NCBI RefSeq assembly: GCF_054482525.1
Contig: NZ_CM137006.1
Direction: 5' to 3' (one strand)
DNA: 64,000 nucleotides
This document shows positions 8,501 through 34,655 of the stretch, piece after piece. The notes under the pieces are model-generated. The model worked only from the letters and a program-made list of their open reading frames with translations, made no database searches and was not told where the DNA came from. The translations under genes were made by a program, and so were the position numbers. Position 1 is the first letter of the stretch. Every line of letters begins with the position of its first letter.

Positions 8501-8586
8501 TAAAAAAACCGACTTTGCGTCGGTTTTTTACTTTCCAGCCCTGAGTTGGTGGCTCTGGCCGGAGTGAGAATGCCCACATCTAACGG
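8501..8586 (-). ncRNA. agrB: Antisense sRNA of the dinQ locus, copy proximal to arsR (agrB-like)
   Basis: About 90 bp repeat unit; 33 nt (GCTCTGGCCGGAGTGAGAATGCCCACATCTAAC) identical to a segment of the dinQ leader at 8986-9018; ends in an intrinsic terminator (stem CCGAC/GTCGG flanked by A7/T6); agrA/agrB assignment from recalled K-12 order. Confidence 0.5.
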
Positions 8587-8734: not shown

Positions 8735-8820
8735 TAAAAAAACCGACTTCGCGTCGGTTTTTTACTTTGCAGCCCAGAGTTGGTGGCTCTGGCTGGAGTG
8801 AGAATGCCATCATCTAACGC
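8735..8820 (-). ncRNA. agrA: Antisense sRNA of the dinQ locus, second copy (agrA-like)
   Basis: Second copy 234 bp from the first, with several mismatches to dinQ in the complementary segment; same terminator structure. Confidence 0.5.
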
Positions 8821-14504: not shown

Positions 14505-14536
14505 AAAGCAGGGTAGCGTTATCGCTACCCTGCTTT
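14505..14536. terminator. Bidirectional intrinsic terminator between rsmJ and dtpB
   Basis: AAAGCAGGGTAGCG-ttat-CGCTACCCTGCTTT, perfect 14 bp stem. Confidence 0.7.
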
Positions 14537-31785: not shown

Positions 31786-31830
31786 CAACTGAACTTAATT
31801 TTATAAATTAAGTTCAGTTAATATCTTTTC
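31786..31830 (+). terminator. AT-rich perfect inverted repeat followed by a T-run, downstream of the antitoxin gene
   Basis: AACTGAACTTAATTT-tat-AAATTAAGTTCAGTT (31786-31818), then aatatcttttctttcc. Confidence 0.5.
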
Positions 31831-31851
31831 TTTCCTCGTTTTAGAAATAAC

Positions 31852-34655
<2,804 letters not shown>

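Follow-up and report, generated by a model that had tools for sequence, protein, structure and literature searches.

What is the long AT-rich palindrome that lies between the hicAB toxin-antitoxin (TA) pair and the nickel regulator gene nikR, and to which of its two neighbours does it belong? The window analysed here, the whole 64-kb stretch of DNA, is from E. coli and is 100% identical to strain PCN033 across the tested stretch. The palindrome falls inside a 119-bp spacer separating the convergent genes hicB and nikR, the latter being the last gene of the nik nickel-uptake cluster. The distance to the palindrome is 55 nt from the hicB stop (31732) and 32 nt from the nikR stop (31852, minus strand), and with no gene on either side before the opposing gene it sits at the end of a transcription unit. 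Literature searches combining hicAB with nikR and HicA with PCN033 returned nothing relevant. The features of the locus are as follows.

31101-31376, plus strand: hicA, 91 amino acids, Pfam HicA_toxin.
31373-31732, plus strand: hicB, 119 amino acids, Pfam HicB family; its transcript would enter the hairpin.
31733-31786, no strand assigned: the part of the spacer nearest to hicB, unique to this configuration.
31750-31762, minus strand: 13-mer TACGCAGAATATC, an exact match, in the same orientation, to 32142-32154 within the nikR coding sequence (nt 100-112 of the gene).
31787-31801, no strand assigned: left arm of the palindrome, AACTGAACTTAATTT.
31802-31804, no strand assigned: loop, TAT on the plus strand and AUA in the nikR sense (TCT/AGA in the variant of the DUF3829 configuration described below).
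31805-31819, no strand assigned: right arm of the palindrome, AAATTAAGTTCAGTT.
31820-31851, no strand assigned: nikR-proximal flank of 32 nt, T-rich on the plus strand (AATATCTTTTCTTTCCTCGTTTTAGAAATAAC) and A-rich in the nikR sense, common to the DUF3829 configuration.
31852-32253, minus strand: nikR, Pfam RHH_1 and NikR_C, converging on hicB.

The initial annotation had described a perfect inverted repeat at this site, and its 15-bp arms are indeed 100% complementary around a TAT loop. It had picked out the right element but placed it, at 31786-31818, one base too far to the left; the 33 bases of the palindrome occupy 31787-31819. Among the perfect hairpins of the window it is the longest, the longest perfect stem in 20 composition-preserving block shuffles being 12 bp. 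No similar sequence was found elsewhere in the window, with 0 matches expected from shuffles. The plus-strand RNA hairpin is predicted at -15.3 kcal/mol (z -5.4) and the minus-strand segment at -19.4 kcal/mol (z -5.1), and both the MFE and the centroid folds of the whole spacer keep the hairpin on both strands. With 15 perfect pairs and a 3-nt loop it provides the stable RNA stem-loop of an intrinsic terminator; what it does not provide is the G+C-rich stem, as only 3 of the 15 pairs are G-C (20%) and the base of the stem is AACUG/CAGUU. Other long hairpins in the window (14505-14536, 8503-8529 and 8737-8763) are G+C-rich with A/T tracts. Two of them, at 8503-8529 and 8737-8763, were seen in the perfect-hairpin scan to be near-identical terminator-like hairpins, AAAAAACCGACTT(T/C)GCGTCGGTTTTTT, 234 bp apart. 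An Rfam scan of 30500-32500 at E<=10 gave only chance matches far below threshold.

Directly after the palindrome the plus strand reads AATATCTTTTCTTTCCTCGTTTT. A simple terminator scan, which asks for five T among eight nucleotides no more than 2 nt from the stem, flagged the palindrome in the window on the plus strand only; the tail AAUAUCUUUUCUUU satisfies this rule, but its first nucleotides are A-A-U-A and the U run begins 6 nt past the stem. On the minus strand the stem is followed by GCAUAGAU, which holds no U tract. At mapped intrinsic terminators, G+C content peaks immediately ahead of the U tract (PMC12207403). As a stable stem-loop past two converging stops, A-rich on one side and T-rich on the other, the palindrome is like the intrinsic terminators of convergent gene pairs, including bidirectional ones; it is unlike them in the weak base and low G+C content of its stem, for which 14505-14536 and 8503-8529 give canonical G+C-rich counterparts in the window, and in a U run that is displaced on one strand and missing on the other. 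Terminator-like hairpins are ordinary elements, and this one stands out for its unusual composition and its place in a mosaic locus; nothing here challenges current understanding.

To which gene the hairpin belongs can be read from the way in which the locus varies. Across 5,426 complete genomes at least seven arrangements of the yhhJ-nikR interval were seen, making it a mosaic hotspot. These are the following.

Arrangement A: yhhJ-hicAB-119 bp-nikR, as in this window; about 1,490 genomes.
Arrangement B: hicAB plus a 5.8-kb low-GC island with PTS, aldolase and GntR genes; O157:H7 and HS4.
Arrangement C: K-12, with rhsB-yhhH-ISEc1, and WP2-W18, with a different RHS element.
Arrangement D: only 8 bp from yhhJ to nikR; AST85.
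Arrangement E: the PTS island without hicAB; FDAARGOS_144.
Arrangement F: hicAB-PTS island-DUF3829-nikR; 3 genomes.
Arrangement G: IS1 derivatives of A.

The palindrome is confined to arrangements A, F and G. The DUF3829 gene, the PTS island and the hairpin region have a G+C content of 30-45%, against 54-59% for the nik genes. A comparison of this junction between strains with and without the TA pair had been proposed in the initial annotation, with an unchanged palindrome in TA-less genomes as the case that would count against its reading. That case did not arise, as the TA-less genomes sampled (K-12 type, AST85, FDAARGOS_144 and WP2-W18) are without the palindrome; K-12 is also the strain for which Term-seq data exist.

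The view of the TA pair itself as a variable insert was not borne out. Citrobacter freundii has the same order (rbbA-yhhJ-hicA-hicB-nikR-nikE), as does Klebsiella aerogenes (hicA-hicB-nikR), so that hicAB adjoining nikR is the older gene order and not a recent insert. The spacers in these species are different. That of C. freundii (L018-L020 3361-3453) is 93 bp long, G+C-rich, REP-like (GCCGGATGGCGGC...) and unrelated to ours, and that of K. aerogenes comprises 27 nt and has no hairpin. Judged from these sequences, the extra ~90 bp holding the palindrome is specific to E. coli. Each genus thus appears to fill the convergent hicB-nikR gap with a different extragenic sequence, and the K. aerogenes spacer argues that the hicB/nikR pair does not require a hairpin.

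In E. coli of arrangements B and F, hicB is followed by another, GC-rich hairpin, UAUAGCGGC...GCCGCUAUA (-20.2 kcal/mol), and then by UUUUUG. The window keeps only the left-arm stub of this O157-type hairpin, TTTTAGCGGC, to which the first ~11 nt of 31733-31786 correspond, leaving the AT-rich palindrome as the only strong hairpin downstream of hicB. It could be taken for an intrinsic terminator dedicated to the hicAB operon and moving along with the TA module, a reading with which the T-rich tail on the hicB-sense strand, the scan flag on that strand only and the position of hicB 55 nt upstream in nearly all palindrome genomes agree. The comparative data contradict it, and we regard it as the least probable of the explanations considered here. 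There are hicAB pairs that lack the palindrome in E. coli of the O157/HS4 type, C. freundii, K. aerogenes, Enterobacter lignolyticus and a P2-like prophage of C. koseri, and in the DUF3829 configuration the palindrome and its nikR flank lie 7 kb from hicAB. Of the intrinsic-terminator option in the initial annotation, the terminator-like character of the hairpin stands and its assignment as the TA operon's own terminator falls, given its absence from O157/HS4-type hicAB genomes and its recurrence beside DUF3829.

The DUF3829-type neighbourhood is found in the 3 genomes of arrangement F and on the metagenome contigs L032 and L034, and it is here, beside the DUF3829 gene, that the palindrome recurs together with its 32-nt nikR-proximal flank. 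In the nikR sense arrangement F reads nikR stop TGA, GTTATTTCTAAAACGAGGAAAGAAAAGATATT, AACTGAACT, a ~150-bp BIME, AACTGAACTGAACTTAATTT-AGA-AAATTAAGCTCAGTT and then ATTTTAATTCCC, after which about 140 nt lead to the DUF3829 gene on the nikR strand. A comparison of 120 nt per side with the DUF3829 locus detected nothing; the common flank lies behind the BIME and was revealed by aligning L029 and L032. Once the BIME is gapped, colinearity between the window and the DUF3829 configuration runs from the nikR stop through the 32-nt flank and the palindrome, and similarity between the arrangements stops exactly at the hicB-side edge of the palindrome, 31786/31787. The palindrome is therefore linked to the nikR flank and not to hicAB. 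A third variant, ACTGAACTTAATTT-AGA-AAATTAAGTTCAGT followed by TGGTTTAATTCCC, is present on contig L031, and a metagenome scan for the AGA-loop variant returned one contig, arranged as in Z1323. The second option of the initial annotation, an insertion or recombination boundary, holds as to position, with homology ending at 31786/31787. It does not hold as to origin: the rearrangement did not create the palindrome, which is whole in both of the configurations compared and so predates the breakpoint.

In the DUF3829 configuration the hairpin is followed in the nikR sense by a U-rich tail, AUUUUAAUU. The same terminator scan gave no flag there, as an A.C mismatch splits the stem; the fold energies of the hairpin in this configuration are -11.3 and -16.4 kcal/mol. 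With this original tail the element has the canonical hairpin-plus-U-tract layout of intrinsic terminators.

The explanation that we favour, with a modest degree of confidence, is that the palindrome is an inherited nikR-side terminator hairpin which now acts as a leaky two-way terminator or 3'-end stabiliser at a rearrangement breakpoint. It would encode an RNA stem-loop belonging to the nikR 3' flank. In the rare DUF3829 configuration an A-rich leader, the hairpin, the U-rich tail and the next gene ~140 nt on together make up the full anatomy of an intrinsic terminator for the nikR sense. In the window the rearrangement would have ended at the distal edge of the hairpin, removed the U tail and brought hicB within 55 nt. 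Transcripts of hicAB on the plus strand would now encounter the hairpin followed by AAUAUCUUUUCUUUCC, probably a weak-to-moderate terminator limiting antisense transcription into nikR. For nikR transcripts, which would meet no U tract, a pause site or a barrier to 3' exonucleases seems likelier than an efficient terminator. One history that would fit derives arrangement A from a DUF3829-bearing form by deletions, one of them ending at the hairpin, although the order may have been the reverse.

Robust folding on both strands, the scan flag on the plus strand, the position at the end of two transcription units, the colinearity with the DUF3829 configuration, the lack of any other strong hairpin downstream of hicB in the window and the high identity among carriers support the terminator reading, and the stem of 20% G+C with its weak base, the offset or missing U run and the hairpin-less spacer of K. 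aerogenes speak against a strong terminator. If the hairpin terminates or stabilises transcripts it would shield the nickel regulator nikR from antisense transcription from the TA operon, and if terminating it would be a natural terminator of unusually high A+T content on which terminator models could be tested. The locus also offers a more general lesson: its neighbours changed in several rearrangements that the short hairpin itself outlived.

The remainder of the spacer consists of debris. The mosaic is made up of 11 nt left over from the O157-type hicB terminator, the nikR fragment of 13 nt, orphan sequence and the palindrome. For the part of 31733-31786 beyond the stub, neither the O157 nor the K-12 islands offer a counterpart, and the spacer does not resemble the ends of the O157 PTS island or of the K-12 rhsB/ISEc1 block. 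The score of the 13-mer TACGCAGAATATC was reached by 0 of 1,000 shuffles (blastn-short E 2e-4), and the match is probably the remnant of a second, decayed copy of nikR. Between the DUF3829 stop and the B-type GntR-nikR spacer, arrangement F contains a fragment of nikR nt 104-113 and then, following the order of the gene, an exact 24-mer of nt 367-390; these two fragments downstream of DUF3829 were located in strain Z1323HEC0462 (L028 4905-4985). The nikR fragment of the window resembles the arrangement-F tail over 17 nt, a score that 5 of 1,000 shuffles reach. Together, these fragments outside nikR suggest a decayed duplicate nikR.

Insertions have also reached the palindrome itself. In strain G3/10 an IS1 is inserted in the right arm (L006 1500-2300) with a 9-bp target duplication, AATTAAGTT, at 31806-31814; in strain A30 (L004 5230-6010) the same IS1 junction abuts yhiN, yhiM through hicB being deleted. 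In the DUF3829 configuration the BIME interrupts the nikR-proximal (right) arm after the equivalent of 31811, and AACTGAACT repeats on both sides of it. This BIME is a REP pair of ~150 bp with an IHF-type linker (L029 3657-3835; L028 6190-6350; L032 2627-2800), with an extra AACTG after it, and looks like an insertion with a short duplication. The BIME repeat matches ~10 places per E. coli genome.

Given this debris, the palindrome might instead be a functionless relic, the ancestral nikR terminator of the DUF3829-bearing arrangement left behind as a neutral leftover after deletions, a possibility that we take seriously while thinking it less probable than retained activity. The nikR-sense U tract is lost in the window, the spacer is made up of rearrangement debris, strain G3/10 tolerates IS1 in the right arm, seven genomes (STEC346 among them) carry a point change in the palindrome, and K. 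aerogenes manages without any hairpin. Set against this are the perfect 15-bp palindrome, unchanged in 1,486 genomes from lineages with differing flanks, the T-rich tail still present on the hicB-sense strand, and the status of the palindrome as the only strong hairpin remaining downstream of hicB.

The palindrome was found once each in about 1,490 of the 5,426 complete E. coli genomes (1,496 carriers in the identity count) and is 100% identical in 1,486 of the 1,496. One change is seen in 7 genomes and two changes in 3, the latter being those of arrangement F. Sampled variants of arrangement A differ at 31746, 31758, 31777, 31786 and 31842, none of them inside the palindrome, and the common c31786t allele extends the arms to 16 bp. 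This conservation within the species is one in which selection and recent common ancestry are inseparable: the 33 nt hold 0 common SNPs where the 86 nt of flank hold ~6, which gives p roughly 0.14 by our own estimate. The stem changes seen are single substitutions only, and none allows covariation to be assessed.

A different kind of explanation places the function in the DNA, with the RNA structure incidental: as a hairpin or cruciform the palindrome would attract recombination or transposition, as a hotspot or target, or else it would be bound by a dimeric protein. Three independent events in or at the palindrome, namely IS1 at 31806-31814, the BIME in the nikR-proximal arm and the breakpoint at 31786/31787, point in this direction, as does a perfect symmetry that exceeds what a terminator needs. 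We consider this unlikely, as the element is single-copy in each genome, essentially restricted to E. coli, absent from the phage and true-plasmid collections searched (two multi-megabase E. coli replicons aside) and not adjacent to a recombinase gene; moreover, IS1 generally prefers AT-rich targets and REP/BIME elements are common at the 3' ends of genes. Nor do known operators fit: the NikR operator consensus is GTATGA-N16-TCATAC, to which the palindrome has no match, and the hicA promoter repeats TGAnGTCAT were matched only weakly (~6/9 positions by eye). A HicB or NikR operator was rejected, with no convincing match to the hicA promoter repeats, compared by eye, or to the NikR consensus. 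On a further reading the palindrome would be more than a terminator, a structure-prone DNA site directing rearrangement at the nikR 3' end, its hairpin or cruciform recruiting IS1 and REP/BIME elements and setting the end-points of deletions. This we hold to be very unlikely; if true, it would explain the mutual replacement of gene blocks (hicAB, PTS island, DUF3829 and Rhs).

The distribution of the palindrome also bears on its relation to repeats and mobile elements. Like the REP/BIME elements of E. coli, which are 3'-end mRNA stabilisers, it is palindromic, extragenic and placed within a 3' untranslated region where two genes converge, and it plausibly protects a 3' end; REP-like sequence occupies the equivalent C. 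freundii spacer, and a BIME lies beside the palindrome in the DUF3829 configuration. It differs from them in being AT-rich (20% G+C), without a REP consensus and limited to one locus per genome, where REP/BIME elements have many dispersed copies with a G+C-rich consensus and true BIMEs occupy ~10 places per genome. A repeat family was rejected, an apparent '2 places per genome' being the match of the palindrome to itself on the opposite strand. It shares with insertion or excision scars and with MITE or IS remnants a position at the exact boundary of alternative arrangements in a highly mosaic interval, but it has no flanking target duplication or other direct repeat around it, no similarity to the ends of neighbouring islands and, in E. 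coli genomes and phages or on true plasmids, no second copy that would mark a MITE, an IS remnant or an att site. Its immediate neighbours are hicB and nikR, with no adjacent recombinase gene.

The phage collection gave no match, and in the plasmid collection the palindrome was found only on two multi-megabase E. coli replicons carrying the same locus; that search also returned a piece of K. aerogenes chromosome and distant hicB genes. A plasmid or phage origin was therefore rejected. A GTDB-wide scan for the arm cores found E. coli only, besides an E. coli-like contig binned as Citrobacter and 2 chance matches in AT-rich Mycoplasmopsis; it required exact 11-nt arm cores, which variant palindromes of other species would escape. 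Look-ups of 93-97%-identical NikR and HicB for other Escherichia species yielded only ordinary E. coli contigs of arrangement A or another genus.

The left arm and loop are overlapped by a seven-codon ORF (ATG CAA CTG AAC TTA ATT TTA TAA, 31783-31806, MQLNLIL), which is preceded at 8 nt by AGGA. It was rejected, being unlikely to be functional as the common c31786t allele turns its second codon into a stop.

We made a number of further observations on hicAB itself. The hicA promoter region (31040-31094) contains a -35/-10 match, TTGACT-16-TACTAT, with which three copies of the repeat TGA(T/A)GTCATA and one inverted TTGACTTCA overlap; K. aerogenes has comparable TTGACTTCA/TGAAGTCAT motifs (L017 1500-1555). 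This is probably the HicB operator. An 81%-identical hicAB pair is located within a P2-like prophage (L021 from Citrobacter koseri and the Logan contig L022, 2729-3360), with Phage_GPA replication genes on one side and portal and terminase genes on the other, so the hicAB TA family is also phage-borne. An Exo_endo_phos family gene comes after the pair. Damage to hicA is frequent and includes an internal stop in RS571 (L005 2362-2637) and a frameshift in HS4 (L012 9302-9576), and a shorter 231-nt hicA is annotated in C51 and LD26-1 (L007 and L008), a class in which the interval is 14 bp shorter. HicB is one and the same protein (WP_000593555.1) in nearly all of these genomes; the antitoxin appears to be retained and the toxin gene to be decaying.
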